A program made the translations under genes and the position numbers. DNA of 64,000 nucleotides, taken from the NCBI GenBank assembly GCA_043727575.1, contig JAYSYN010000244.1:2932-66931 (forward strand). The letters are read 5' to 3'. Below, in pieces: positions 15,690 to 30,072 of this stretch. This DNA is from Fimbriiglobus sp. (GTDB lineage Bacteria > Planctomycetota > Planctomycetia > Gemmatales > Gemmataceae). Position 1 is the stretch's first letter; each line of letters begins with the position of its first letter. The notes beneath the pieces are model-generated. The model was not told the DNA's origin, ran no database searches, and worked only from the letters and a program-made list of their open reading frames with translations.

Positions 15690-17459
15690 ATGAAACCGTG
15701 TCGAACACCCGTTTGGATGCTGGCCACCGCAGGATTGATCAGTTCGGCGATCCCCGTCGCCGCCCAACCGGGCGGGGGCGGATTCCCAGGCGGACCCGGC
15801 GGCGGTTTCCCCGGCTCTCCCGGTGGACCCGGCGGGATCACGGGCCAGACCCGAAAAATCTTGAAGGACTACGACAAAGACAACGACGGCCGCTTGAATA
15901 CCGAGGAACGCAAAGTCGCGCTCGAAGTCCTGAAGAAAACACCGGGCGGTCGTCCCGGCGGCGGAAATACGCCGGCTCCGAAACCGGGTGCGCAAGTCAA
16001 AATCTCGGACGCCAAAACGTACCCCGACGCCAAACTTTTCGAGCCGACCGTCCTACGGACGATCTTCCTCGACTTCGAAAACAAAGACTGGGAATCGGAA
16101 CTCGAAACCTTCCACGGCACCGATGTCGATGTGCCTTGCCGAGTCACGGTCGACGGGAAGACCTACAAGGATGTCGGCATCCACTTCCGCGGGATGTCGT
16201 CGTACATGATGGTCCGCGCCGGCTCGAAACGGTCGATGAATTTGTCGTTCGACCACGCCGACCACAAGCAGCGCCTCTACGGAAATAAGACGATCAATCT
16301 TCTCAATGGCCACGAAGACCCAACGTTCCTGAGTACCGTTCTCTATTCGCACATTGCCCGCCAGTACATTCCGACGCCGCAGGCGAACCTCGTCAAGATC
16401 GTCATCAACGGTGAGAATTGGGGCATCTACACGAACGCCCAACAGTTCAACAAGGAATTCTTAATCGAGAATTTCAAGACGTCCCAAGGTGCGCGTTGGA
16501 AAGTACGCGGTAGCCCGGGCGGCCGCGGTGGCATGGAGTACCTCGGCGATAAAGTCGACGACTACAAACGGATCTTCGAGATCAAATCGAATGACGACGA
16601 GAAGTCGTGGAAAGCGCTCATCCAGTTCTGCAAAGTGCTGAACCAGACCCCGGCCGAGAAATTGGCGGAAGAGTTGAAACCGATCTGCGACGTCGACGGC
16701 TTGCTCTGGTTCCTCGCCCTCGATGTGGCCCTCCTCAACGGCGACGGCTTCTGGACACGGGCCAGCGATTACAGCCTTTACCTCGACGAGAAAGGCAAGT
16801 TCCACTTCATCCCGCACGATATGAACGAAGCCTTCCACCCCGCCGGCGGTCCCGGTACGGGCGGCGGTCGGCCCGGCGGCGGCGGTCGCCCGGGCGGCTT
16901 CGGACCACCCCCGACCCCCGGGGAGATCCTGCCGATGCCGGTGCAACAGCAATTGAAATTGACCGAGCAACAAAAGAAAGACGCCGCCGCGCTGCAGAAA
17001 GACGTCGACGCGACCATCGAGAAATTGCTCACGGCCGAACAACTCAAGCGATGGAAGGACATGAAGGCGGGTCCGGGCGGCTTCCCCGGCGGGCCGGGCG
17101 GAATGGGCGGCGGTGGTATCGATCTCGACCCTCTCGTCGGCGCGGCCGATTCCCGGAAGCCGCTCCGCAGCAAAGTGCTCGCGGTGCCGGAACTGAAAGC
17201 GAAGTACCTCGCCGATGTCAAAACCATCGCCGAGAAATCGCTCGATTGGAAAGTGCTCGGGCCGGTGGTGGCGCAATACCGCAAACTCGTCGAGAAGGAA
17301 ATCGAAGCGGACACGAAAAAGCTCGAACCGTTCGACGCATTCATGCGGACGACGGCCGACGACGCGGCGACGCCGAAGGGGCGCGAGTACCCACTCCGCG
17401 CGTTTGCGGACTTGCGGACGAAGTACTTGATCGACTACAAAGTACCCGTACCGAAGTGA
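15690..17459 (+). CDS. CotH-family (atypical kinase fold) protein, secreted, with an EF-hand-like motif and Gly/Pro-rich tracts
   Basis: The CotH core reads VTVDGKTYKDVGIHFRGMSS...KRSMNLSFD...INLLNGHEDPTFL...LVKIVINGENWGIYTNAQQFNKEFL. The N-terminus carries DYDKDNDGRLNTEE (DxDxDG) and a signal peptide. Confidence 0.8.
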   Translation: MKPCRTPVWMLATAGLISSAIPVAAQPGGGGFPGGPGGGFPGSPGGPGGITGQTRKILKDYDKDNDGRLNTEERKVALEVLKKTPGGRPGGGNTPAPKPGAQVKISDAKTYPDAKLFEPTVLRTIFLDFENKDWESELETFHGTDVDVPCRVTVDGKTYKDVGIHFRGMSSYMMVRAGSKRSMNLSFDHADHKQRLYGNKTINLLNGHEDPTFLSTVLYSHIARQYIPTPQANLVKIVINGENWGIYTNAQQFNKEFLIENFKTSQGARWKVRGSPGGRGGMEYLGDKVDDYKRIFEIKSNDDEKSWKALIQFCKVLNQTPAEKLAEELKPICDVDGLLWFLALDVALLNGDGFWTRASDYSLYLDEKGKFHFIPHDMNEAFHPAGGPGTGGGRPGGGGRPGGFGPPPTPGEILPMPVQQQLKLTEQQKKDAAALQKDVDATIEKLLTAEQLKRWKDMKAGPGGFPGGPGGMGGGGIDLDPLVGAADSRKPLRSKVLAVPELKAKYLADVKTIAEKSLDWKVLGPVVAQYRKLVEKEIEADTKKLEPFDAFMRTTADDAATPKGREYPLRAFADLRTKYLIDYKVPVPK

Positions 17460-17475
17460 CCCCCGGGACGGATCC

Positions 17476-18144
17476 ATGACCGATTGGTTGACGAAGCAAT
17501 TCAAGCACGCCCCGGAACTCGCCGCGCAGGTCGCCTTGTCCGTCGCATTCGGGTTCCTCGTGGCCGGGATTTTCCGCGCCACGATGGCCAAACGGGAACG
17601 ATCGGTGTCGCTGCTGACGACGCTGATCCTCTTGGCGGTCATGACGGCGATCTTGACGCTGACCATCGGAGAAAACACCGCCCGCGCCTTCGGCCTCGTG
17701 GGGGCGCTTTCGATCGTCCGGTTCCGCACCGTCGTCGAAGATACCCGCGACACCGCCTTCGTGATCTTCTCCGTCGTCGTCGGCATGGCGGTCGGCGCGA
17801 ACCAGATTTTACTGGCGGGTCTGACCTGCGCGGCCGTCGCGGTCGTCGCCGCGCTCATGCACTGGGTCGTGCCCGGCGGGCGGACGCCGACGGCCTGCAA
17901 ATTGCAACTCTGCATCCGCATCGGTTTGGGACGCGGCACGGATCAATTGATCGAAGTCATCCAACGGTACGCGGGGGAACTCAAAGCGATCGGCGCGGCG
18001 ACCGCCAAGCAGGGCGCCGCGATGGAAGTGACCTACTCGCTGCGATTGACCGGCGAACCGGAATCGATGATCCCGCTCTTCGCTGAGTTGAGCAAAATCG
18101 ACGGGGTGCAAGGGGTGGAATTGAAAGAAAATCCCAAGGCGTGA
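17476..18144 (+). CDS. DUF4956-domain membrane protein
   Basis: GLVGALSIVRFRTVVEDTRDTAFVIFSVVVGMAVG is the DUF4956 core as I recall it. It lies immediately downstream of CotH, a known pairing. Confidence 0.75.
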   Translation: MTDWLTKQFKHAPELAAQVALSVAFGFLVAGIFRATMAKRERSVSLLTTLILLAVMTAILTLTIGENTARAFGLVGALSIVRFRTVVEDTRDTAFVIFSVVVGMAVGANQILLAGLTCAAVAVVAALMHWVVPGGRTPTACKLQLCIRIGLGRGTDQLIEVIQRYAGELKAIGAATAKQGAAMEVTYSLRLTGEPESMIPLFAELSKIDGVQGVELKENPKA

Positions 18145-18151
18145 TGCGGGG

Positions 18152-19312
18152 TCACGCCGCTTTGGCGTACAAGTCCAATCGCAGTTGATTCAGGATTACG
18201 CCGAAGACTTGGCGGATTTGGTCGTGACCTTGCTTCAGCAGGAACTCGGAGCTGCGGCCGTGGCTCTTGGCCCCGAGGACGTAGTACTCCGGTTCGTCGG
18301 TGCGGAAGTCGCCGTGCGGTTCGCCGACGCGCAATTCCGCCGTCAGATTCGCGTCGGGCCGGTAGCCGACGTTGGCGATCACCTTTTCCACTTCCCAACT
18401 CATCGGTTTGCCGGCGATGCGCCCCGCGACGCGGAAACCTTTGTCGGGCCCGTGGCAAACCAGTTCATCGATCTGCGTTTGCGGGTGGTACTCGAGGTTG
18501 CCGTCGCAGCGGGTCGCCAGTTGATTCGCCCGTGCGGCCAGCCTGTCACGCTCTTTGAAGGGGTCGTTCGTCGAGCGCGTTAGCGGTTGCGTGCGGACCC
18601 CGTGCGTCAGCCAAATGGCCCACGTCGATTGGTTTTCTTGGGCCAAATCCGCGAGGCCGCACATCGTCGTCGCCGCGCTGTAGCCACTGCCGATGAGGAT
18701 GGTGCTCTTGCCCGAGTACGTGACTTTCTTTGCCCCCCGGACATCTTCGAGCCAGTACGGGACCTGCGGACGGGCCGCGATTTCCCCGGCGGCGGGAAGG
18801 CCCCCGTCGCCGACCCAGTTGGGGCGCGTGTAGGTGCCGGTGCAATCGAGGACGACGTCGGCGATTTCGAAACGCTCGACGTTGTTCGCCTCGCGCACGA
18901 GCAGGCGAAACGGCGGCGGCGATTTCTTCGGGTCGGGGCGGTCGGTCTTCCGCCAACCGGAGCGGCCGATGCCGAGAACGGCGGCGGGTATCCGAATGAC
19001 GTCTTTCAAAACACCGGTGGCGAGCGGTATCAAATACGCGTCGCGGAATTCGCGGCCGGTGAGGTATTCGGTATCGGCGGGGAGTTTGGCGACGCTGCGG
19101 TCGTCGCGCAGGATTTGCTTGCCGAGGCCGGTGGCGTTCAACCCGAACGGGGTGAACATTTTCGCGAAGCCCCAGCGGTTCACCGACTCCGCGATTTGCC
19201 CCTGCTCGAACAGGGCGACGGGGCAGCCGGTTTCTTTCGCGTAGAGCGCCGCTTCGAGGCCGATCGGCCCGCCGCCGAGGATCGCGATGCGCGGCAAGCC
19301 GGGTTTGCTCAT
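18152..19312 (-). CDS. FAD/NAD(P)-binding oxidoreductase
   Basis: The N-terminal dinucleotide fold is RIAILGGGPIGLEAALYA, and a second GxGxxA-type motif is ILIGSGYSAAT. Its ATG overlaps the stop of the FtsK-like gene (ATGA at 19309-19312). Confidence 0.75.
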   Translation of the reverse strand: MSKPGLPRIAILGGGPIGLEAALYAKETGCPVALFEQGQIAESVNRWGFAKMFTPFGLNATGLGKQILRDDRSVAKLPADTEYLTGREFRDAYLIPLATGVLKDVIRIPAAVLGIGRSGWRKTDRPDPKKSPPPFRLLVREANNVERFEIADVVLDCTGTYTRPNWVGDGGLPAAGEIAARPQVPYWLEDVRGAKKVTYSGKSTILIGSGYSAATTMCGLADLAQENQSTWAIWLTHGVRTQPLTRSTNDPFKERDRLAARANQLATRCDGNLEYHPQTQIDELVCHGPDKGFRVAGRIAGKPMSWEVEKVIANVGYRPDANLTAELRVGEPHGDFRTDEPEYYVLGAKSHGRSSEFLLKQGHDQIRQVFGVILNQLRLDLYAKAA

Positions 19313-22300
19313 GGTCGGTCGGTCGCCGGTGACAAGGGGCTGTCATCCGGTTGCATCGGCACTTCGCCCTTGGCGGCTTCAGTCGAAATCGTCGGAAGTT
19401 GCAACCAGAGTTTCGCCCCGATCTCTTTCAACCACACCGGACTCGCTTGGCCGTAGGGCCGGAATTTCTCGGGGCGCTCCGTGCCCTCTTCGACGAAGAG
19501 CGCCCGCGTCCGCCCCAGCCGGCTCGCGGCGGGCGTGTCGATCAACTGCGCCGAATCGTTCGCGCTCATTTGGAATAGCACGCGCAGTGTAAATTCCCGC
19601 ATCCCCTGACGATCCACGGCCCGCGTCAGGTTCATCACGCTGTCGCACCAGGCAATGACGTGGATGCCGACGGCCGGGCCTTCGCGCAGGATCGTGGCGA
19701 ACTGATCCCCCGGCGCCGCCACTTTCTCGCCGCGGCGGCCGTAGCCGAAATCCTCCTCGGCCTTGCGGAGTTCGCGCAGCCGGTGCAACCCGTGCACGAA
19801 CAAGAAGCGCGGCGCCCGCTCCGCGATGGTCCCGTTCAACCGGCCATCGACTTCCGCGGCGAACGCGGCGAGAGTCGCCGCGAGCCCGGCCCGTTCGACC
19901 AACGGCGCCAGCCGGAGCGCCGCGCAGACGCTGCGGAGGGTATCGGCGAATTCGGAATCGTCCGGCGTCCCGTCGAGCACCGCGGCAATATTCGGATCGC
20001 GGTACCGCGCCGCCAGCGACACCAGGCCGGCGCTGATGATAGCGAGGGCAGCGTCTTCGGATTGGCCGATGAGCAGCACATTCGCCCCCGATTGCGGGCG
20101 GAACACCGCGGCGGTGGGGTCTTTGATCGCGATGGCGTCGCCCAGCCAGAGGGTCGCGGGCCCGGTATCGCTCGGCGATGCCAGCAGATGTTGGAGAGTC
20201 GCATTGTCGGTGAGTTCCGCGGCGGCGCTTCCTTCGAAGACGAGGCACCGGCTCGGCGCGGCGGATCGTTCGTGCAGTTTTTCCAGAATCGCCTCGCGGC
20301 GATCCTCGGAAAGCCAGACGACTTGGAACGGGTTGTTCCCTTCTTGCAGGCCGTTGGCGTCGTTGTAAATCGCCTCGCCCGGCCGGGTGAGCAACCGCGC
20401 GGCGGAGTTGTCTTTGCTGAGGATCAACTGCGCGTCGGCCTCGCTGCATTGCAGAGCGATGCGTACCGCCATCTGGTCGATGGTGCTGCGCGGCAGCGAG
20501 TAGCCGCCGCCGAGGGTTTGCGATCCGAGGATGACGTGGACGCCGAAAGCCCGGCCCTGGCGGACGAGGCGGTCGATGAGCAAACCGGCTTCTTGAGACA
20601 GTTTGTCGTCTTCGACGAAGAATTCTTGGAATTCGTCGACGACGAGCAAGATGCGGGGCAGGGGTTCGCCGGGATGCGACTCGCGGAAGCTCGGGAAATC
20701 GTTGACGCCGAGGGCGCGGAAACGGTCGCCGCGCTCGCGCAAGATGCCGTCGAGACGCTGCAGCACGCTCAGGCCGAATTCGCGTTCGCTCTCGATGGCG
20801 ATGACCCGCGCATGCGGCAGGTGCATCTCGGCGTACATCTTGAATTCGACCCCTTTCTTGAAGTCGATCAAGTACAACTGGGCTTCCGCCGGGCTGTACG
20901 TCATCGCGAGATTCGTGATGAGCGCGTGCATTAGCGTCGATTTGCCGGAGCCGGTTTTCCCGGCGATGAGCGCGTGCTGCGCCGTGCCGCGACCGAGTGA
21001 AAGGACCTGCCGTTTCGTCGCTCCCGAACGACCGATGGGGATGTTGAACCCGATCTTCGTGCTGGCGGCCCAGATCTGATCGACCGCCGGTGCGATGAAC
21101 TCGAACGGCACTTCGACGCGGGCCGCATTCCGGCTCGCTTCGCCGATCTTGCGGACGATGGCCACGATGTCATCGCTGCCCGGCGGCCGGTCGAGCGTGA
21201 GCGGGAACGGGGCGAGCGCCGGATCGGCGGCGCGGAAGCCCCCGTCTTTCCAAGCGAGATTCAGTGAGACCTGCTCGAGGTCCGCGAGGCGGAAATCGCG
21301 CGGCAACGCCACCGCCGTATCGACTCCGAGCATCGTGCAGACGCCGCAGGCGGGGCCGCTGCTCATGATGCTGACGAGCCGGCGGGCCGCATCCGGCGTG
21401 AAATTCGTGGGGAAATTGGCGATGACGAGGACGCGATACGGCTCGGCCACTTCCCCGGCGGCGCGGTTATACTCCTCGATGCTCTTGTATTGGTTGCGGA
21501 GATACTTCTGGATCACGTTTTCCATGTGCTCGGTCAGGTCGGTCAGCTTCGCGTCGATCTGACTCGGCTCGGTCCAGATGCGGTTGGTCACGAGCAATTC
21601 GTCGAAATCGGCGAGGTGCATGAACGCGGCGAAGTTCTCGCCGAGACCGACGGGGTCGAAGATCGTGAACCGGACTTTGCCCGGTGGCAAGCCGGTGAGG
21701 AAGCGTAGCATCATCGCTTGGAGCGCATTCACGGTTGCGGCGCGACCTTCGTCACGGGCCTTCAGAACGACGGAGCAACCGTCGGGGAAGGGGAGGAACG
21801 CGGGCACGACGGCATCGACCGGATGTTCCGGTGTCAGTCGGCTGTCAGTGGGGACACCCTCGGGGAGCGCCGCGGCTTCGACTCGGTACTCGCCGAAGCG
21901 GATCCCGGCGGGGACTTCCGTTGGGAGTGCAGCAGTCCCGGACAGGACCGCCGGCCAATTCGGGAAGCTCGCTCCGGCACCTTGGGCGTCCCGCACACTC
22001 GCGCCGACATCGTTCAAACCCGATTGCCAGCGCTCCGAAAGTCGTTCCCAATTGCTGGCCCGCGCCGATTCGGCCGATTCGAGGGCCGCGGAATATTTGG
22101 CTTCGGCGCGCGCCAGTTGATCGTCAAAATCGGCGGCGAGCCCGGCCGCCTCGACTTCGTGCTTCCGGGCCGTTTCGAATTCGTCCGCCCGGCGCTTCAA
22201 TTTGGACACCGCGAATCCCGCTTCGTACCGTTCTTGGTTGTTGCGGAGGGTCGACGCGGCGCTCTTCACCGCGCGGGCCAGATTCGCGTGGTGCTGCTCC

Positions 22301-23247
22301 TCGATGCTGGCGCGATCGCGAGCGTGGGCTTTTTTCAGCGCGGCGTGACTGGTTTGGTAAGTCGCCTCCGCATGGGCCGCGAGGCTGGCGCCGGCGCGCT
22401 CGGCTTCCGAGAGGAACACCCCGAGGGCGGTCCCGCGGTCGCGGACTTGCCGGCGCGCTAAGAAGACGAGCAACTGCCGGAGCGCGAGTCCGACGAGGAT
22501 TGCCCCGGCGAGGCCGACGCCCAGAGCGGAGGGCACCGACAGCCCGGCCGCGGCCGCGATGCCGAAGGAAATCGCCCCGGCCGCGAAGACGCAGAGCATC
22601 GTACCGAGCAAACCCGCGAACTTCGTCAGCGGCGCTTGCCGTAGCTGCGCGAGCGCGGCGGTCGAATCTTCGAGGCACTTTTCGAGCTTGCCTTCGGGGT
22701 CGGTTTTAATGGCCGAGGGCAAACGGCTGGCGCGGAACTCCACGTCGTCGCGCGATAATTGCACCCGTCCGAGGACGGCTTCGGCTTCGGACCATTGCCG
22801 CTCGATTTGCGCGTCGCCCAATTTCGCCGTTCGCAATTGCGTGTCTTTCAATTCCGAAGCTTGTTTCTCGCCGGCTTCGTGGAGCGAATCGACCGTCCAA
22901 TAGCGGTCCTTCGTCTCGTTTTTGATCTGCGCTTCGGCGGCGCGCTGCGACTGCTCCGTCCGGTTTTTCGTCTCTTGGTACCCGGTGGCGGCGGTCCGCT
23001 CCGCGTCGCCCAGCGCCGATTGCAATTGCGCCTCCGCCGCGGACCGCTCGGCCGCTTGCTCCCCGAGCGCCCGCGCCTTCGCAGTCCCGAGGACGCGCCG
23101 AGATTTGGCCACCTCTTTTTCGGCGGCATCCACGGCGGCGGAAAAAGCATCGGTCAAAGCCTTTTCACCGGCGGCCCGCTCGCGTACCAGCGTCTGCAAG
23201 AGTTGCAAACTCGCGCGCTGCCGGTCGAACCAATTTTCCGCGGCCAT
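19309..23247 (-). CDS. membrane-anchored FtsK/SpoIIIE-family ATPase (EssC/EccC-like), 1312 aa
   Basis: Walker A LIAGKTGSGKST lies at 20935-20970, Walker B is ILLVVDEFQEF, and GVHVILGSQ follows. It has a roughly 200-aa Ala/Glu/Gln-rich predicted coiled coil and then two hydrophobic segments (LLGTMLCVFAAGAISFGIAAAAG / ALGVGLAGAILVGLALRQLLVFL). P-loop-less FtsK-like modules flank the active one. Confidence 0.88.
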   Translation of the reverse strand: MAAENWFDRQRASLQLLQTLVRERAAGEKALTDAFSAAVDAAEKEVAKSRRVLGTAKARALGEQAAERSAAEAQLQSALGDAERTAATGYQETKNRTEQSQRAAEAQIKNETKDRYWTVDSLHEAGEKQASELKDTQLRTAKLGDAQIERQWSEAEAVLGRVQLSRDDVEFRASRLPSAIKTDPEGKLEKCLEDSTAALAQLRQAPLTKFAGLLGTMLCVFAAGAISFGIAAAAGLSVPSALGVGLAGAILVGLALRQLLVFLARRQVRDRGTALGVFLSEAERAGASLAAHAEATYQTSHAALKKAHARDRASIEEQHHANLARAVKSAASTLRNNQERYEAGFAVSKLKRRADEFETARKHEVEAAGLAADFDDQLARAEAKYSAALESAESARASNWERLSERWQSGLNDVGASVRDAQGAGASFPNWPAVLSGTAALPTEVPAGIRFGEYRVEAAALPEGVPTDSRLTPEHPVDAVVPAFLPFPDGCSVVLKARDEGRAATVNALQAMMLRFLTGLPPGKVRFTIFDPVGLGENFAAFMHLADFDELLVTNRIWTEPSQIDAKLTDLTEHMENVIQKYLRNQYKSIEEYNRAAGEVAEPYRVLVIANFPTNFTPDAARRLVSIMSSGPACGVCTMLGVDTAVALPRDFRLADLEQVSLNLAWKDGGFRAADPALAPFPLTLDRPPGSDDIVAIVRKIGEASRNAARVEVPFEFIAPAVDQIWAASTKIGFNIPIGRSGATKRQVLSLGRGTAQHALIAGKTGSGKSTLMHALITNLAMTYSPAEAQLYLIDFKKGVEFKMYAEMHLPHARVIAIESEREFGLSVLQRLDGILRERGDRFRALGVNDFPSFRESHPGEPLPRILLVVDEFQEFFVEDDKLSQEAGLLIDRLVRQGRAFGVHVILGSQTLGGGYSLPRSTIDQMAVRIALQCSEADAQLILSKDNSAARLLTRPGEAIYNDANGLQEGNNPFQVVWLSEDRREAILEKLHERSAAPSRCLVFEGSAAAELTDNATLQHLLASPSDTGPATLWLGDAIAIKDPTAAVFRPQSGANVLLIGQSEDAALAIISAGLVSLAARYRDPNIAAVLDGTPDDSEFADTLRSVCAALRLAPLVERAGLAATLAAFAAEVDGRLNGTIAERAPRFLFVHGLHRLRELRKAEEDFGYGRRGEKVAAPGDQFATILREGPAVGIHVIAWCDSVMNLTRAVDRQGMREFTLRVLFQMSANDSAQLIDTPAASRLGRTRALFVEEGTERPEKFRPYGQASPVWLKEIGAKLWLQLPTISTEAAKGEVPMQPDDSPLSPATDRP

Positions 23248-23265
23248 CGTTCGACCCCGACTGAG

Positions 23266-23475
23266 TAGGACAGGCCTCCAGGCCTGTCCAAATCGATGAT
23301 GTCGACAGGCCCGGAGGCCTGCCGCTACATTAGCGTTTGTCCCGTTCGCCTATGTAGGACAGGCCTCCAGGCCTGTCCAAATCGATGATGTCGACAGGCC
23401 CGGAGGCCTGCAGCTACATTAGCGTTTATCCCGTTCGACTATGTAGGACAGGCCTCCAGGCCTGTCCAAATCGAC
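23266..23475. repeat. 89-bp tandem repeat, about 2.35 copies, each unit carrying two GC-rich hairpins
   Basis: Units are 23266-23354, 23355-23443 and partial 23444-23475. There are 3 mismatches between the two full units. The perfect palindrome GGACAGGCC-TCCA-GGCCTGTCC plus the imperfect GACAGGCC-CGGA-GGCCTGC occur in each unit. Confidence 0.9.
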
Positions 23476-23490
23476 TGCGACACCACCGGT

Positions 23491-23715
23491 TCATTCATCC
23501 GAATATTCGCAATCCTGCCGGATCTGCACGAAGAGCACCGACAGTTGATCGACGGCGCGCAGGACTTTGCTCGCGCCGTCGTCCCACGGCAACCAGACCT
23601 TTTCTTCATGCTCCTGCTTCGCGGTGTCGGTCCATGTCTCCGTCGCGGCCTGCCAATGGGCGCGGGCCGTTTTTTGAGCATCGTAAAGCTGACTGCGGGA
23701 CGCGCCGAATTTCAT
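23491..23715 (-). CDS. small helical protein (74 aa), WXG100-like paralog
   Basis: The product is MKFGASRSQLYDAQKTARAHWQAATETWTDTAKQEHEEKVW... Its ATG overlaps the upstream stop (ATGA at 23712-23715). A central TW-T-D...QEHEEK motif resembles that of the 90-aa protein at 24249-24521. Confidence 0.55.
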   Translation of the reverse strand: MKFGASRSQLYDAQKTARAHWQAATETWTDTAKQEHEEKVWLPWDDGASKVLRAVDQLSVLFVQIRQDCEYSDE

Positions 23716-24242
23716 GGCGCCCCCGGTGATGCGGACGCGGCCGGGGCCGGCGCGAGGTCGGCCCGCATCTCGGCGTATTGTTCCAGCGCTTCGATTTGCC
23801 GCTGCAACAGCGACAAACCTTTCGCCACGTCCCCTTCCAGTAACAGCGCGAAGCGGTGACCCGCCCCTGAAAAGGTCTCGTCGATGATTTTCGGCAAGTT
23901 CACCGACCATTTCTTGCAAACCGCGACGCGATCTTGGGCGTGCTCCAGTCTCGCGACGGCTCGCCGAAGGTTGCGTTCCTGCACGGTGGTGTCGGGCATT
24001 CGCCCGGTCGGGCCGGGGAATCGACGGGCCGAAAGCTCCGCCTTCGCCTGCACCACGGCGTCTTCGCAATCCCGGATCGAGCGCTGCCAGCGGTCGAGTT
24101 GTTGACTCACCCAATCGATGCCCCGGCGGATTTCGAGTCGGATGCTCGCCAGCGATTCTTCGGATTCGACCTTGAATACAGCGGCCGACGCGAGCCAGTC
24201 GCGCAGGCCGTCGATCTCGCGGACATCGGCGCCGACACTCAT
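23712..24242 (-). CDS. hypothetical helical protein (176 aa) in the T7SS-like operon
   Basis: The translation is coherent and charged/heptad-like. Its start is 7 nt downstream of the WXG100-like gene, and its stop overlaps the next start. I recognise no family. Confidence 0.6.
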   Translation of the reverse strand: MSVGADVREIDGLRDWLASAAVFKVESEESLASIRLEIRRGIDWVSQQLDRWQRSIRDCEDAVVQAKAELSARRFPGPTGRMPDTTVQERNLRRAVARLEHAQDRVAVCKKWSVNLPKIIDETFSGAGHRFALLLEGDVAKGLSLLQRQIEALEQYAEMRADLAPAPAASASPGAP

Positions 24243-24248
24243 GATCGC

Positions 24249-24521
24249 CTACCGCTGGGTGAGGTATTCTTCGATGCGCTCCGCCTTGCGCAGCAAGTAC
24301 GGCAGGTACAGATTCGAGTTCTCGAGGAAGTGTTCGAGCACCTTCATGGTCTCTTCGAACTCCTCGCGGAACTTGTCGTGTTCCTGATCCCGCCACGTGT
24401 CGCCCAGCGCCATCAACTGGGCGTGCAACCCGGCGAGGTTCACATGCAGGTCGGTGTTGAATCGCTTCAGACTCCCGGCGAAGCGCCGCAGTTCGGCCGG
24501 ATCGACGACGGCTTGGGCCAT
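24249..24521 (-). CDS. WXG100-like small helical-hairpin protein (90 aa)
   Basis: The product is about 90 aa, with two predicted helices around a central Trp turn (LMALGDTWRDQEHDKFREEFEE, W43). It is encoded in the same operon as an FtsK/SpoIIIE ATPase. The motif is W-R-D rather than canonical W-x-G. Confidence 0.6.
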   Translation of the reverse strand: MAQAVVDPAELRRFAGSLKRFNTDLHVNLAGLHAQLMALGDTWRDQEHDKFREEFEETMKVLEHFLENSNLYLPYLLRKAERIEEYLTQR

Positions 24522-24710
24522 GGGGAAACCCCTATTGCGGACATGAGCAAACTTTTACCAGTATAACCCGCGAGTACCGGAAGTGTTGACGGGACTACCG
24601 GAGATTCATCGAAGGACGCATGTGCGATTTCTTTCCCGTGGGTCGGGAGCCCATAAAACAATTCTCGATGGACTGCCGTCGATCCTCGGATTTCCTATTC
24701 GGACAACCTC

Positions 24711-26009
24711 ATGCTCGATGCCGGTTTCATCCGCGACAACCTCGCCGCCGTGAAGGCCAACTGCGCCAACCGGAATGCGACGCCCGACCTCGACCGCATC
24801 GTCGCGCTCGACGACGAGCGCAAGCGCTTGCAGCGCGTCGCCGATGAAACCAAGGCGAAGCAGAACGAGATCAGCAAGAAGTTCCCGACCGCGAAGACGC
24901 CCGACGAGAAGGCGGCGGTGAAAGAGGAAAGTGGCAAACTGAAGGAACGAGTCGGGGCGACCGAAGCGCTGTTGAAGCAGGTGCAACTCGATTTGCACGC
25001 GGCGCTGATGACCGTGCCGAACATGACCCACCCGGCCGCCCCGGTCGGCAGCGATCCGTCGTCGAACAAGGTCGTCGCGGAATTCGGCACCAAACCGACC
25101 TTCGATTTCAAACCGAAGGATCACTATGACCTCATCCACGAACTCGATCTCGCCGACTTGGAAGCCGGGGCCAAAGTCGCGGGGCAGCGCTTCTATTTCT
25201 TGAAGAACGAAGGCGTGCTACTCGAACTCGCGCTCGTTCAATACGCGATGCAGACGCTGATCCGCCACGGCTTCACGCCGATCATCACGCCCGATGTGGC
25301 CCGCGTCGAGGTCCTCGAAGGCATCGGCTTCATGCCGCGCGACAACACCGAGACCCGTCAGGTTTACACCATCGCCGACACCGACCTGTGCCTGATTGCC
25401 ACAGCCGAGATCACCCTCGGCGGCATGCACCGCGACCAAGTCTTCGACGAAGCCGATCTCCCGAGGAAATACGTCGGTCTGTCGCACTGTTTCCGCACCG
25501 AAGCCGGGGCCGCCGGACGCGACACGCGCGGACTGTACCGCGTCCACCAATTCACCAAAGTCGAGATGTTCACCTTCTGCACTCCGGAGCAGGGCGAGGC
25601 GATCCACGAAGAAATCCGAGCCATCGAAGAGGAAATCTTCAACGGCCTCGGGATCCCTTTCCACGTCATCGACACCTGCACCGGCGACCTCGGCGGCCCG
25701 GCCTACCGCAAGTACGACCTCGAAGCGTGGATGCCCGGCCGCGGCACCGCCGGCGACTACGGCGAGATCACAAGCACTTCGAATTGCACCGACTTCCAAG
25801 CCCGCCGGCTCGGCATCCGTTACCGGCCAAAAGAAAAGAAGGGCGGTGGTCTGCCGTTCCTCCATACCCTGAACGGCACCGCCGTGGCCTGCACCCGGGC
25901 GATGATCGCGATTCTGGAAAACTACCAGCAGGCCGACGGCACGGTGAAAGTGCCCGAGGTGCTGCAACCGTGGATCGGCAAGGATGTGATTCGGGCGAAG
26001 AAGGGGTGA
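24711..26009 (+). CDS. serS: serine--tRNA ligase
   Basis: MLDAGFIRDNLAAVKANCANR is followed by a coiled-coil arm and the class II motifs (FRTEAGAAGRDTRGLYRVHQFTKVE, GEITSTSNCTDFQARRL, LNGTAVA). Confidence 0.95.
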   Translation: MLDAGFIRDNLAAVKANCANRNATPDLDRIVALDDERKRLQRVADETKAKQNEISKKFPTAKTPDEKAAVKEESGKLKERVGATEALLKQVQLDLHAALMTVPNMTHPAAPVGSDPSSNKVVAEFGTKPTFDFKPKDHYDLIHELDLADLEAGAKVAGQRFYFLKNEGVLLELALVQYAMQTLIRHGFTPIITPDVARVEVLEGIGFMPRDNTETRQVYTIADTDLCLIATAEITLGGMHRDQVFDEADLPRKYVGLSHCFRTEAGAAGRDTRGLYRVHQFTKVEMFTFCTPEQGEAIHEEIRAIEEEIFNGLGIPFHVIDTCTGDLGGPAYRKYDLEAWMPGRGTAGDYGEITSTSNCTDFQARRLGIRYRPKEKKGGGLPFLHTLNGTAVACTRAMIAILENYQQADGTVKVPEVLQPWIGKDVIRAKKG

Positions 26010-29946: not shown

Positions 29947-30021
29947 CGCGGCGTGGAGCAGCCCGGTCAGCTCGCCAGGCTCATAACCTGGAGGTCATTG
30001 GTTCAAATCCAATCGCCGCAA
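29947..30021 (+). tRNA. tRNA-Met (CAT), initiator-like
   Basis: I folded the cloverleaf by hand: acceptor CGCGGCG/CGCCGCA, D stem GAGC/GCTC, anticodon stem CCAGG/CCTGG with loop CTCATAA, T stem ATTGG/CCAAT with loop TTCAAAT. It is near-identical in layout to E. coli tRNA-fMet, including the C1xA72 mismatch and A11:U24. CCA is not encoded. Confidence 0.92.
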
Positions 30022-30072
30022 CTTTAGGTGCAGTAGAATAACCTAGAATTTCTAGGTGCGCTAAAGATTTGT

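Follow-up and report, generated by a model that had tools for sequence, protein, structure and literature searches.

A conserved WXG100–FtsK/SpoIIIE ATPase cassette of Planctomycetota as a candidate minimal type VII secretion-like module

Layout of the locus and the conserved cassette

We examined a cluster of genes on the minus strand of a 64,000-nucleotide stretch of DNA from Fimbriiglobus sp. (contig JAYSYN010000244.1; the whole stretch is referred to as the window), which a first-pass annotation had read as a minimal locus resembling a type VII secretion system (T7SS), with WXG100-like proteins beside a membrane ATPase of the FtsK/SpoIIIE type. Five closely packed open reading frames (ORFs) run from position 24521 to position 18152, and their number, order, strand, and coordinates agreed with that annotation, as did an 89-bp repeat and two ATGA overlaps. 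In the first of these, the p176 stop codon and the p74 start codon overlap by 4 nt (23712–23715), and in the second the ATPase stop codon and the oxidoreductase start codon do so (19309–19312). The genes for WXG90, p176, p74, and the ATPase are co-oriented and tightly packed. The five genes are as follows.

24249–24521, minus strand: WXG90 gene; 90-amino acid (aa) protein assigned to the WXG100 superfamily, with a W43-R-D45 turn motif and without a signal peptide
23712–24242, minus strand: p176 gene; 176 aa, predicted long antiparallel helical hairpin that matches no curated family
23491–23715, minus strand: p74 gene; 74 aa, starting at an internal ATG of a longer frame, likely a divergent WXG100-like hairpin
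19309–23247, minus strand: ATPase gene; 1312 aa, FtsK/SpoIIIE-type, with two predicted transmembrane (TM) helices
18152–19312, minus strand: FAD/NAD(P)-binding oxidoreductase gene; 386 aa, with Pyr_redox_2/3 matches

Relatives of the ATPase were sought with a pattern scan that covered a single genome for each GTDB species and gave at least 590 confirmed loci; the ATPase is encoded in at least 590 species genomes. From these, 80 loci were retained, and the taxonomic labels and identities given below were read from those; ORFs were called in 84 related loci and used in phmmer and jackhmmer searches. We noted that 78 of the 80 retained loci carry Planctomycetota labels, comprising Gemmatales (Fimbriiglobus, Gemmata, Limnoglobus, Frigoriglobus, and Zavarzinella), Isosphaerales (including a complete Singulisphaera genome), Pirellulales, Thermoguttaceae, Phycisphaerales, and one Kuenenia-labeled metagenome-assembled genome (MAG). 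The genome of an isolate, Singulisphaera sp. Ch08 (L030), also has the cassette. The other two labels (loci L011 and L062) read “uncultured Alcaligenaceae”; these loci contain typical cassettes or ATPases and are probably mis-binned planctomycete contigs. The window ATPase is 95% identical to that of a Fimbriiglobus sp. MAG, and identity to it runs from 95 to 56% within Fimbriiglobus, to about 51% in Gemmata, 44–46% in Isosphaeraceae, and 41–45% for full-length matches in Pirellulales and Phycisphaerales. Identity thus drops roughly with taxonomic distance, which, as far as pairwise identities show, suggests that the cassette descended mainly vertically.

All four genes (WXG90, p176, p74, and ATPase) are present in 56 of the 84 loci, always in that order and on one strand, so that the WXG90 gene shares an operon with the FtsK/SpoIIIE-family ATPase in the same number of loci. 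Where at least 1.7 kb of sequence was available upstream of the ATPase gene, the cassette was complete in 53 of 59 loci. In four loci (L012, L044, L066, and L080), the ATPase gene has no WXG90, p176, or p74 gene nearby (within 3–6 kb); the other absences of small genes mostly coincide with contig ends. L066 and L054 have a similar upstream ORF, and L066 is labeled Candidatus Kuenenia, a bin assignment that may be wrong because its ORFs look GC-rich. Two different cassettes (L042 and L074) come from one Isosphaeraceae MAG (GFS_7813), and some genomes may hold two paralogous copies. The p74 gene is often translationally coupled to the ATPase gene (e.g. in L003, L027, and L074). The genes flanking the cassette vary between loci and are unrelated to one another, and mobile-element genes adjoin it in L003 alone among the flanks examined. 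Neither in the window nor in the 84 loci is the cassette linked to genes for toxins, immunity proteins, Ter or VWA proteins, kinases, or phosphatases.

Comparative sequence evidence, namely homologues in the hundreds for each ORF and a conserved order, indicates that these are real genes and not chance ORFs. Further, because the order is kept, the flanks are variable, and neither the 89-bp repeat nor the oxidoreductase gene is kept throughout, we conclude that the functional unit is the four genes encoding WXG90, p176, p74, and the ATPase, to which particular lineages have added the repeat and the oxidoreductase, which departs from the first-pass annotation that had counted both as part of the locus.

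Three small helical proteins and a three-domain ATPase

The 90-aa protein had been described as WXG100-like, and it matches the Pfam family WXG100 (PF06013) at 35 bits, above the gathering cut-off of 27.3; against the narrower TIGR03930 model, it scores 27.3 bits, below the cut-off of 44.85. Its closest solved relative is Helicobacter pylori HP0062, to which it aligns end to end (E 1.7e-4 over 84 residues, 2–85), followed by Bacillus anthracis EsxB. HP0062 is a helical-hairpin dimer in its crystal structure, with “WRD” replacing WXG (PMC3397514), and its gene clusters with that of the FtsK-like HP0066 (PMC4978471). The turn of WXG90 likewise reads W43-R-D45 (i.e. W-x-D, not W-x-G) and is near-invariant in 54 family members. 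The WXG90 sequence contains no N-terminal hydrophobic segment or signal peptide, and the protein is well conserved across the sampled Planctomycetota, C-terminal helix included (consensus ...IPFLLRKAERIEEYLQQR). We conclude that WXG90 is, judged by its sequence, a member of the WXG100 superfamily; its presumed hairpin fold is taken from the end-to-end alignment with HP0062.

The p74 protein of the window belongs to no curated family in Pfam or NCBIfam. Its AlphaFold2 model, built with 89 sequences, has a mean predicted local distance difference test (pLDDT) score of 89.6 and consists of a helix (residues 7–27), a turn containing an invariant W28-x-D30 (W-T-D in the window protein), and a second helix (31–70). 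The top Foldseek match of this model is Mycobacterium abscessus EsxEF (TM-score 0.66; root mean square deviation, 1.9 Å), and T. curvata EsxA/B gives a TM-score of 0.70; the E-values of both are non-significant (E > 1), as is to be expected of a hairpin of ~70 residues. In sequence, 24 of the 89 family members match Pfam WXG100 at E ≤ 1 (best, 0.0032), more than for any other family, and the hidden Markov model (HMM) of the p74 family gives 25.9 bits with the WXG100 protein of a Caballeronia plasmid (see below) and 13.4 bits with WXG90 of the window. When the p74 and WXG90 families were compared with hhalign, they aligned in register, with a non-significant probability of 9%. The earlier description of this protein as WXG-like thus has weak support from sequence and from the predicted W-x-D hairpin, whose best structural matches are Esx proteins; p74 is likely a divergent, shortened WXG100 paralogue.

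The third small protein, p176, had been called helical, and this is borne out by its AlphaFold2 model (mean pLDDT 90.9), in which helix 7–72, a conserved tip loop (73–85), and helix 86–163 form a long antiparallel hairpin. The p176 family has no counterpart in Pfam or NCBIfam and no match to Pfam LXG. A Foldseek search of the model was uninformative as to fold, returning generic coiled-coil hairpins alone (best E 0.055), and a comparison of 86 family members with Pfam yielded weak coiled-coil families alone (e.g. DUF4407, FliJ, and HrpB7). Aligned by hhalign with the WXG90 family, p176 was in register with a non-significant probability of 8%; in the HMM alignments, WXG90 and p176 share a terminal motif of the ...E-x-Y type (L/I-E-x-Y). 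A profile search of a library of 1.84 billion cluster representatives recovered 2220 representatives related to p176, mostly stand-alone proteins of 160–225 aa. We also observed rare fusions (P0370, P0375, and P0385): two end in an Imm33-like domain (of the immunity-protein family PF24719), and one joins an N-terminal WXG100 domain to a C-terminal p176 domain.

Thus, a predicted helical hairpin or WXG100 similarity was found for the small proteins of the locus. The fourth protein, the ATPase, matches Pfam FtsK_SpoIIIE at 2.3e-31, and its two TM segments, already proposed from the sequence, lie at aa ~208–265 and are conserved in 13 of the 13 family members aligned. Its regions are as follows.

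22648–23247, minus strand: predicted N-terminal cytoplasmic coiled-coil region, aa 1–200; delimited by alignment, no Pfam family
22453–22626, minus strand: predicted TM hairpin of two TM helices, aa ~208–265; Kyte-Doolittle windows above 1.6
21928–22440, minus strand: second coiled-coil or stalk region, aa 270–440 (~170 aa); poorly conserved, helical, no Pfam family
21073–21930, minus strand: domain D0, aa 440–725; degenerate FtsK-like, with ARDEGRAAT in place of the P-loop
20278–21072, minus strand: domain D1, aa 726–990; Walker A GKTGSGKS at aa 763 and Walker B VVDEFQ
19438–20277, minus strand: domain D2, aa 991–1270; conserved C-terminal domain without a P-loop, proposed substrate receptor

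The alignment shows D0, D1, and D2 to be well-conserved globular regions. The Pfam, NCBIfam, and PDB matches all center on D1, which has invariant alignment columns and contains the single Walker A motif of the protein, neither D0 nor D2 having a G..G.GK[ST] motif. Searched alone, D0 matches Pfam FtsK_SpoIIIE at 24.3 bits (E 2.4e-5) and finds nothing in the PDB by sequence; D2 searched alone has no Pfam or PDB match. Compared with D1 by hhalign, D2 gave a modest probability of 57% (E 1e-4), the alignment covering the portion C-terminal to Walker B. From the motifs, D1 is predicted to be the only catalytically competent P-loop domain; D2 is probably a degenerate FtsK-like domain. Further, we note that aa 25–383 (22099–23175 in the window) match the PADLOC model for the dynamin-like LeoBC (35.3 bits, E 1.8e-9), which may reflect coiled-coil bias or else a genuine likeness to dynamin-like proteins of bacteria, in their stalk and paddle.

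To which branch of the FtsK/SpoIIIE superfamily the ATPase belongs is indicated by its scores and by its placement in a tree. Among the NCBIfam models, it scores 108.8 bits with EccCa (TIGR03924; cut-off 509), 98.3 with EccCb (TIGR03925; 347), 87.8 with EssC (TIGR03928; 778), and 23.5 with FtsK (PRK10263; 1566); among PDB sequences, T. curvata EccC (4nh0) leads with 125.7 bits (1.3e-35), followed by EccC5 (98.5), YukB (70), and FtsK (41.6). Pfam detects no Ftsk_gamma domain in it. In a bootstrapped neighbor-joining tree of ATPase domains, which is small, distance-based, and drawn from a limited sample of taxa, the planctomycete ATPases and WXG-linked ATPases of plasmids form one clade (bootstrap 100), with the ATPase of a Rhodococcus plasmid as sister to the planctomycete clade. 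The WXG-linked clade is sister to D1 and D2 of EssC/EccC (bootstrap 100 for the joint node), in a grouping that excludes two FtsK sequences and a TcpA-like conjugation ATPase. The ATPase is therefore on the EssC/EccC side, away from FtsK and the TcpA-like conjugation ATPase, and with a WXG100 protein that passes its Pfam threshold beside an ATPase that groups with EssC/EccC, the description of the locus as a minimal T7SS-like one stands. Neither of the outcomes by which the first-pass annotation would have been refuted was observed. One qualification is needed: the ATPase is related to EssC/EccC but is not their orthologue, since just one of its three FtsK-like domains has a Walker A motif and it belongs to a separate clade with the plasmid WXG-linked ATPases.

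A tblastn search of plasmids gave a few ATPases, from Caballeronia, Rhodococcus, Deinococcus, and Helicobacter, that align with that of the window across D0–D2 at 29–32% identity, whereas EssC and EccC align around D1 alone. The gene neighborhoods of the four plasmid ATPases are as follows.

Caballeronia plasmid: VWA, WXG100, 436 aa, 113 aa, 76 aa, ATPase, CARF, VWA, PP2C, and kinase, a TerY-P-type neighborhood
Helicobacter plasmid: WXG, a 340-aa protein with a C-terminal WHH/colicin-DNase (HNH) nuclease, SUKH (SMI1/KNR4) immunity protein, 77 aa, and ATPase
Rhodococcus plasmid: TerD-fused ATPase, then 314-, 73-, and 87-aa (WXG) proteins
Deinococcus plasmid: small coiled-coil protein with a terminal TM helix, ATPase, then 88-, 94-, 326-, and 144-aa proteins

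The WXG90 HMM matches the WXG proteins of all four plasmids (25–83 bits). The p74 HMM weakly matches the 144-aa protein of Deinococcus and the 73-aa protein of Rhodococcus and matches neither the 76-aa protein of Caballeronia nor the 77-aa protein of Helicobacter. With the p176 HMM, the N-terminal part of the 314-aa Rhodococcus protein scores 19.5 bits, the best of ~300 shuffled controls reaching 2.4, and the 326-aa Deinococcus protein scores 18.2 bits; the match to the 436-aa Caballeronia protein is marginal (13.5 bits; best shuffled control, 15.4), and the N terminus of the Helicobacter WHH toxin gives no match. The Rhodococcus and Caballeronia alignments cover the tip of the hairpin, where they have the common motif P-x-C-[ST]-x-[EQ]...A..RL..A[EQ]. 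None of the four plasmid ATPases (L086, L087, L088, and L092) has a TM segment. The TerD domain of the Rhodococcus fusion is N-terminal, and the Deinococcus coiled-coil protein, encoded directly upstream of the ATPase gene, has 142 aa and ends in a TM helix. From these matches, which are weak, p176 appears to correspond, minus any toxin, to the N-terminal carrier domain encoded by the larger middle gene of the plasmid relatives. We propose that the planctomycete ATPase acquired its own membrane anchor and that the middle protein was reduced to the helical carrier p176.

Two further features of the locus, outside the four genes, are listed here.

24560–24589, minus strand: candidate sigma-70-like promoter, TCAACA-18-TATACT; ~40 bp upstream of the WXG90 gene, weak
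23258–23474, no strand assigned: 89-bp tandem repeat in the p74–ATPase spacer; 2.4 copies, 95% matches (Tandem Repeats Finder)

The promoter candidate comes from a consensus scan, in which it has 9 of 12 consensus matches, and is weak evidence. Each 89-bp unit of the repeat is a near-perfect inverted repeat of ~30 bp and would form a long GC-rich hairpin; the RNA fold of the repeat has an energy of −147.7 kcal/mol (z-score, −12.5). No further copy of the motif lies in the window, and the repeat is missing both from L085, a relative with a 94%-identical ATPase and an unrelated spacer sequence, and from the other loci. With no match in Rfam, a single site, and its absence from L085, it was rejected as a functional element of the system, as a CRISPR-like array, and as a known RNA. 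We conclude that it is a strain-specific insertion outside the conserved system; it could be a small insertion resembling a miniature inverted-repeat transposable element or a repetitive extragenic palindrome, or an intercistronic RNA stabilizer or attenuator.

The oxidoreductase matches the Pyr_redox families only through its N-terminal dinucleotide-binding (Rossmann) motif and resembles YpdA and thioredoxin reductase (E about 1e-3 to 1e-7). Its gene, which in the window is translationally coupled to the ATPase gene through the ATGA overlap, lies downstream of the ATPase gene in 15 of the 84 loci, nearly all labeled Gemmatales, and unrelated genes take its place in L003; on this distribution, it was rejected as a core component. 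A link between the oxidoreductase and conserved cysteines, whether those of p74 or those found in other lineages at the p176 tip, is speculative. The locus lies between serS, encoded on the opposite strand (24711–26009), and a DUF4956 gene (17476–18144). Farther along, a plus-strand ORF (15690–17459, 589 aa) has several Gly/Pro-rich low-complexity stretches (e.g. PGGGGFPGGPGGGFPGSPGGPGG), and a tRNA-Met (CAT) at 29947–30022 is the one RNA gene that Rfam and ARAGORN detect in the 64 kb of the window.

Proposed export and the alternatives to it

Because the components, their order, the phylogeny of the ATPase, and the toxin/immunity pair in one relative agree with one another, we favor the interpretation that the cassette is an export module, in which a helical complex of WXG90, p176, and p74 would be moved across the cytoplasmic membrane at the expense of ATP, the middle gene encoding the carrier or the cargo, and we give this interpretation a probability of roughly 55%. 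The ATPase would assemble as a hexamer, as FtsK/EccC-type ATPases do, and the 12 TM helices of this hexamer would make up or gate a pore through the cytoplasmic membrane. An elongated helical bundle would arise from p176 together with WXG90, the latter being either a homodimer or the partner of p74; such a bundle would be comparable with EsxA/B pairs or with the LXG-Lap1-Lap2 pre-secretion complexes. The conserved C-terminal helices of WXG90 and p176 (...L/I-E-x-Y) would dock on D2, and ATP hydrolysis by D1 would drive the folded bundle into the periplasm. Within this scheme, we propose p176 as a toxin-less, LXG-like carrier or trafficking subunit, whose binding to its partners is a prediction. 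For the crossing of the outer membrane, a pore-forming WXG100 pair would be one possibility, of the kind that EsxE/EsxF represent in mycobacteria (PMC7810871).

A more far-reaching form of the export interpretation, which we regard as tentative and somewhat doubtful, is that the cassette constitutes a working, vertically inherited, type VII-like export pathway throughout a diderm phylum, with an inner-membrane channel made by the TM-anchored ATPase alone and a ternary WXG90-p176-p74 complex that acts in the periplasm or, like the EsxE/EsxF pair of mycobacteria, assembles in the outer membrane. Were this the case, this phylum-wide pathway would be the simplest T7SS known, possibly near the ancestral form, and would be a core part of planctomycete envelope biology, not a weapon.

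Several observations weigh against export. To date, export has been shown for no member of the minimal WXG/FtsK class (PMC10765036). Because no accessory membrane component of T7SSa or T7SSb accompanies the cassette, the ATPase-only channel is an assumption, and because the plasmid ATPases have no TM segment and some of them lie in conflict-type neighborhoods (TerY-P or TerD), the function may be a non-secretory one. The phylum-wide conservation of WXG90 suits a component of a machine or a housekeeping factor better than it suits an effector, and inspection of the sequences by eye recognized no canonical YxxxD/E signal. Moreover, several of the homologies on which the scheme draws are weak: that of p74 to WXG100; that of p176 to the carrier domains, which is undetected at the N terminus of the Helicobacter toxin; and that of D2, whose assignment stands on the hhalign probability of 57%. 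The Foldseek E-values are non-significant for the p176 and p74 models alike.

The alternative that survives best, although we consider it unlikely, takes up some of these points and holds that the cassette is a non-secretory machine working at the cytoplasmic side of the membrane in a housekeeping role (e.g. membrane remodeling, division or budding, or control of development, in a phylum without FtsZ), the small proteins being regulators or stalk-like subunits of the ATPase and not its substrates. Such a machine would account for a cassette that is widespread in the phylum and has housekeeping flanks (serS in the window) and no toxin or immunity genes, for the conservation of WXG90 across the phylum, and for the frequent translational coupling of p74 to the ATPase in loci such as L003, L027, and L074. 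It could also draw on the resemblance of the p176 fold to hairpins of the FliJ/YscO/HrpB7 type that plug export ATPases, these being generic, weak matches, and on the weak match of the N-terminal coiled-coil/TM region of the ATPase to the dynamin-like LeoBC. However, the coiled-coil matches are non-specific (E ≥ 0.004), the sister group of the ATPase clade is EssC/EccC, whose business is protein secretion, and WXG100 proteins, as substrates or co-substrates, are a hallmark of ATPases of the EssC/EccC type. Further, the plasmid relatives tie the same components to a nuclease toxin and its immunity protein, a linkage that implies export.

The same plasmids lend themselves to a second alternative, which we consider quite improbable, namely that the cassette is a conflict or defense module, domesticated or still active in inter-bacterial competition or against phages, as has been proposed for the mobile WXG-FtsK pairs that accompany TerY-P triads, TerD, and polymorphic toxins. 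The nearest relatives outside the planctomycetes are indeed found on plasmids, beside TerY-P, CARF, or TerD genes or beside an HNH toxin with SUKH; the ATPase of the Rhodococcus plasmid is sister to the planctomycete clade; and rare p176 fusions carry an Imm33-like domain. The ATPase domain also matches the PADLOC models SspH and mad8, but only at the level of the P-loop domain, and membership of a PADLOC defense system was rejected for that reason. In the planctomycetes themselves, the picture differs: the window and the 84 loci have no linked toxin, immunity, Ter, VWA, kinase, or phosphatase gene, the flanks are housekeeping in nature and variable, with mobile-element genes beside the cassette in L003 alone, and identity falls roughly with taxonomy, suggesting vertical descent.

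Finally, that the ATPase is a DNA translocase of the FtsK/SpoIIIE/TraB type, serving segregation or conjugation beside small genes that are unrelated neighbors, is highly improbable and was rejected, since its membrane anchor, its Pfam FtsK_SpoIIIE domain, and the “DNA segregation ATPase FtsK/SpoIIIE” annotation of homologues in the source records are outweighed by FtsK scores far below those of EccC/EssC, the lack of a matched gamma domain, three tandem domains with one active site unlike a single-motor DNA pump, a tree that puts FtsK and the TcpA-like ATPase outside the clade, and a gene order strictly shared with three helical proteins throughout the phylum, which argues against chance neighbors.

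Comparison with known systems

With the DNA pumps FtsK and SpoIIIE, the ATPase shares a P-loop motor fold and membrane anchoring; it differs from them in having no gamma domain and in being a multi-domain protein with degenerate domains rather than a single-motor pump. Its likeness to the T7SS is closer. A WXG100 protein and a membrane ATPase of the FtsK/SpoIIIE family with two TM helices are common to all T7SSs (PMC10765036), and this pair is what the window locus has in common with T7SSb (EssC/YukB, EsxA/YukE, EssA, EssB, EsaA, and EsaB). The D1 domain of the window ATPase, moreover, groups as sister to the domains of EssC/EccC, and small helical partners are encoded beside a longer helical-hairpin protein. 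This last arrangement is reminiscent of LXG with Lap1 and Lap2. In contrast with EssC, the window ATPase lacks FHA domains and has three, not four, P-loop-type domains with a single Walker A motif, and the host of the cassette is a diderm. Whereas EssC and EccC consist of a DUF domain and D1–D3, several of which bind nucleotide, and contain two detectable G..G.GK[ST] motifs, the window protein contains one Walker A motif.

With the ESX systems (T7SSa), the locus shares EccC as the best solved-structure match of its ATPase and helical hairpins as the form of the substrates. It differs in that only one of the three ATPase domains aligns to EccC and in that the TM pair is preceded by a 200-aa coiled-coil region absent from EccC. 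In the structures of ESX-5 and ESX-3, the TM helices of EccC line the central pore, and a pore made by the ATPase alone is therefore conceivable. As the first-pass annotation had noted, other membrane components of T7SSa or T7SSb are not visible in the cassette or in its variable flanks: EccB/D/E, MycP, EssA/B, EsaA, and EsaB/YukD were found neither in the operon, nor in the neighborhood examined within the 64-kb window, nor in the flanks of the related loci. With these accessory components absent and the equivalog cut-offs missed by a wide margin, membership of the canonical T7SSa or T7SSb was rejected. A further parallel is offered by LXG-Lap1-Lap2 and EatA-TapA, in which (PMC9600955; bioRxiv 10.64898/2026.08.24.746431) a long hairpin protein and two small WXG100-like partners are likewise encoded beside the ATPase. 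Relatives of p176 carry extra C-terminal domains, as LXG proteins do; p176 itself has no toxin domain and no detectable similarity to Pfam LXG.

The closest precedent is the class of loci described by Zhang et al. in 2012, in which a stand-alone WXG protein accompanies an ATPase with three HerA/FtsK domains, the middle one alone being active; the authors named planctomycetes among the lineages with this solo-WXG architecture and termed such loci “mobile versions of T7SS” (PMC3482391). HP0062/HP0066 of H. pylori is an example of a solo-WXG and FtsK-like pair, and a review describes WXG and FtsK-like pairs of Gram-negative bacteria as noted by bioinformatics, with their function unconfirmed (PMC10765036). 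Because the class had thus already been noted, the locus is less novel than the first-pass annotation assumed. On its domain make-up, we consider that the locus is a chromosomal member of the class “solo-WXG plus three-domain FtsK/HerA ATPase,” with D2 as the weakest link in this assignment. It agrees with the class in that its WXG protein stands alone and has a W-x-D turn, reading “WRD” in WXG90 as in HP0062, and in that the one Walker A motif of the adjoining ATPase lies in the middle of three FtsK-like domains.

Whether WXG and FtsK-like pairs of Gram-negative bacteria secrete has been a standing question since they were first noticed in about 2002–2012, and the planctomycete cassette may be the cleanest test case, being chromosomal, phylum-wide, and composed of four genes, with an ATPase that has its own membrane anchor. 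Proof of export would establish what type VII secretion minimally needs and would give a phylum with an unusual envelope a further secretion pathway; proof that nothing is exported would instead indicate a new cellular role for WXG100 proteins. The cassette differs from the class as described by Zhang et al. in several respects. It is chromosomal, with housekeeping flanks, rather than mobile and patchy, at least 590 species having it and Planctomycetota being the label of 78 of the 80 loci retained; it has no attached toxin, immunity, or TerY-P genes; and, compared with the plasmid ATPases, the planctomycete ATPase has an N-terminal extension of ~440 aa that contains the TM hairpin. Within the literature searched, what our analysis adds to that description is the four-gene make-up of the cassette, its two extra helical proteins and their plasmid counterparts, the planctomycete-specific TM extension of the ATPase, and the breadth of the cassette across the phylum.

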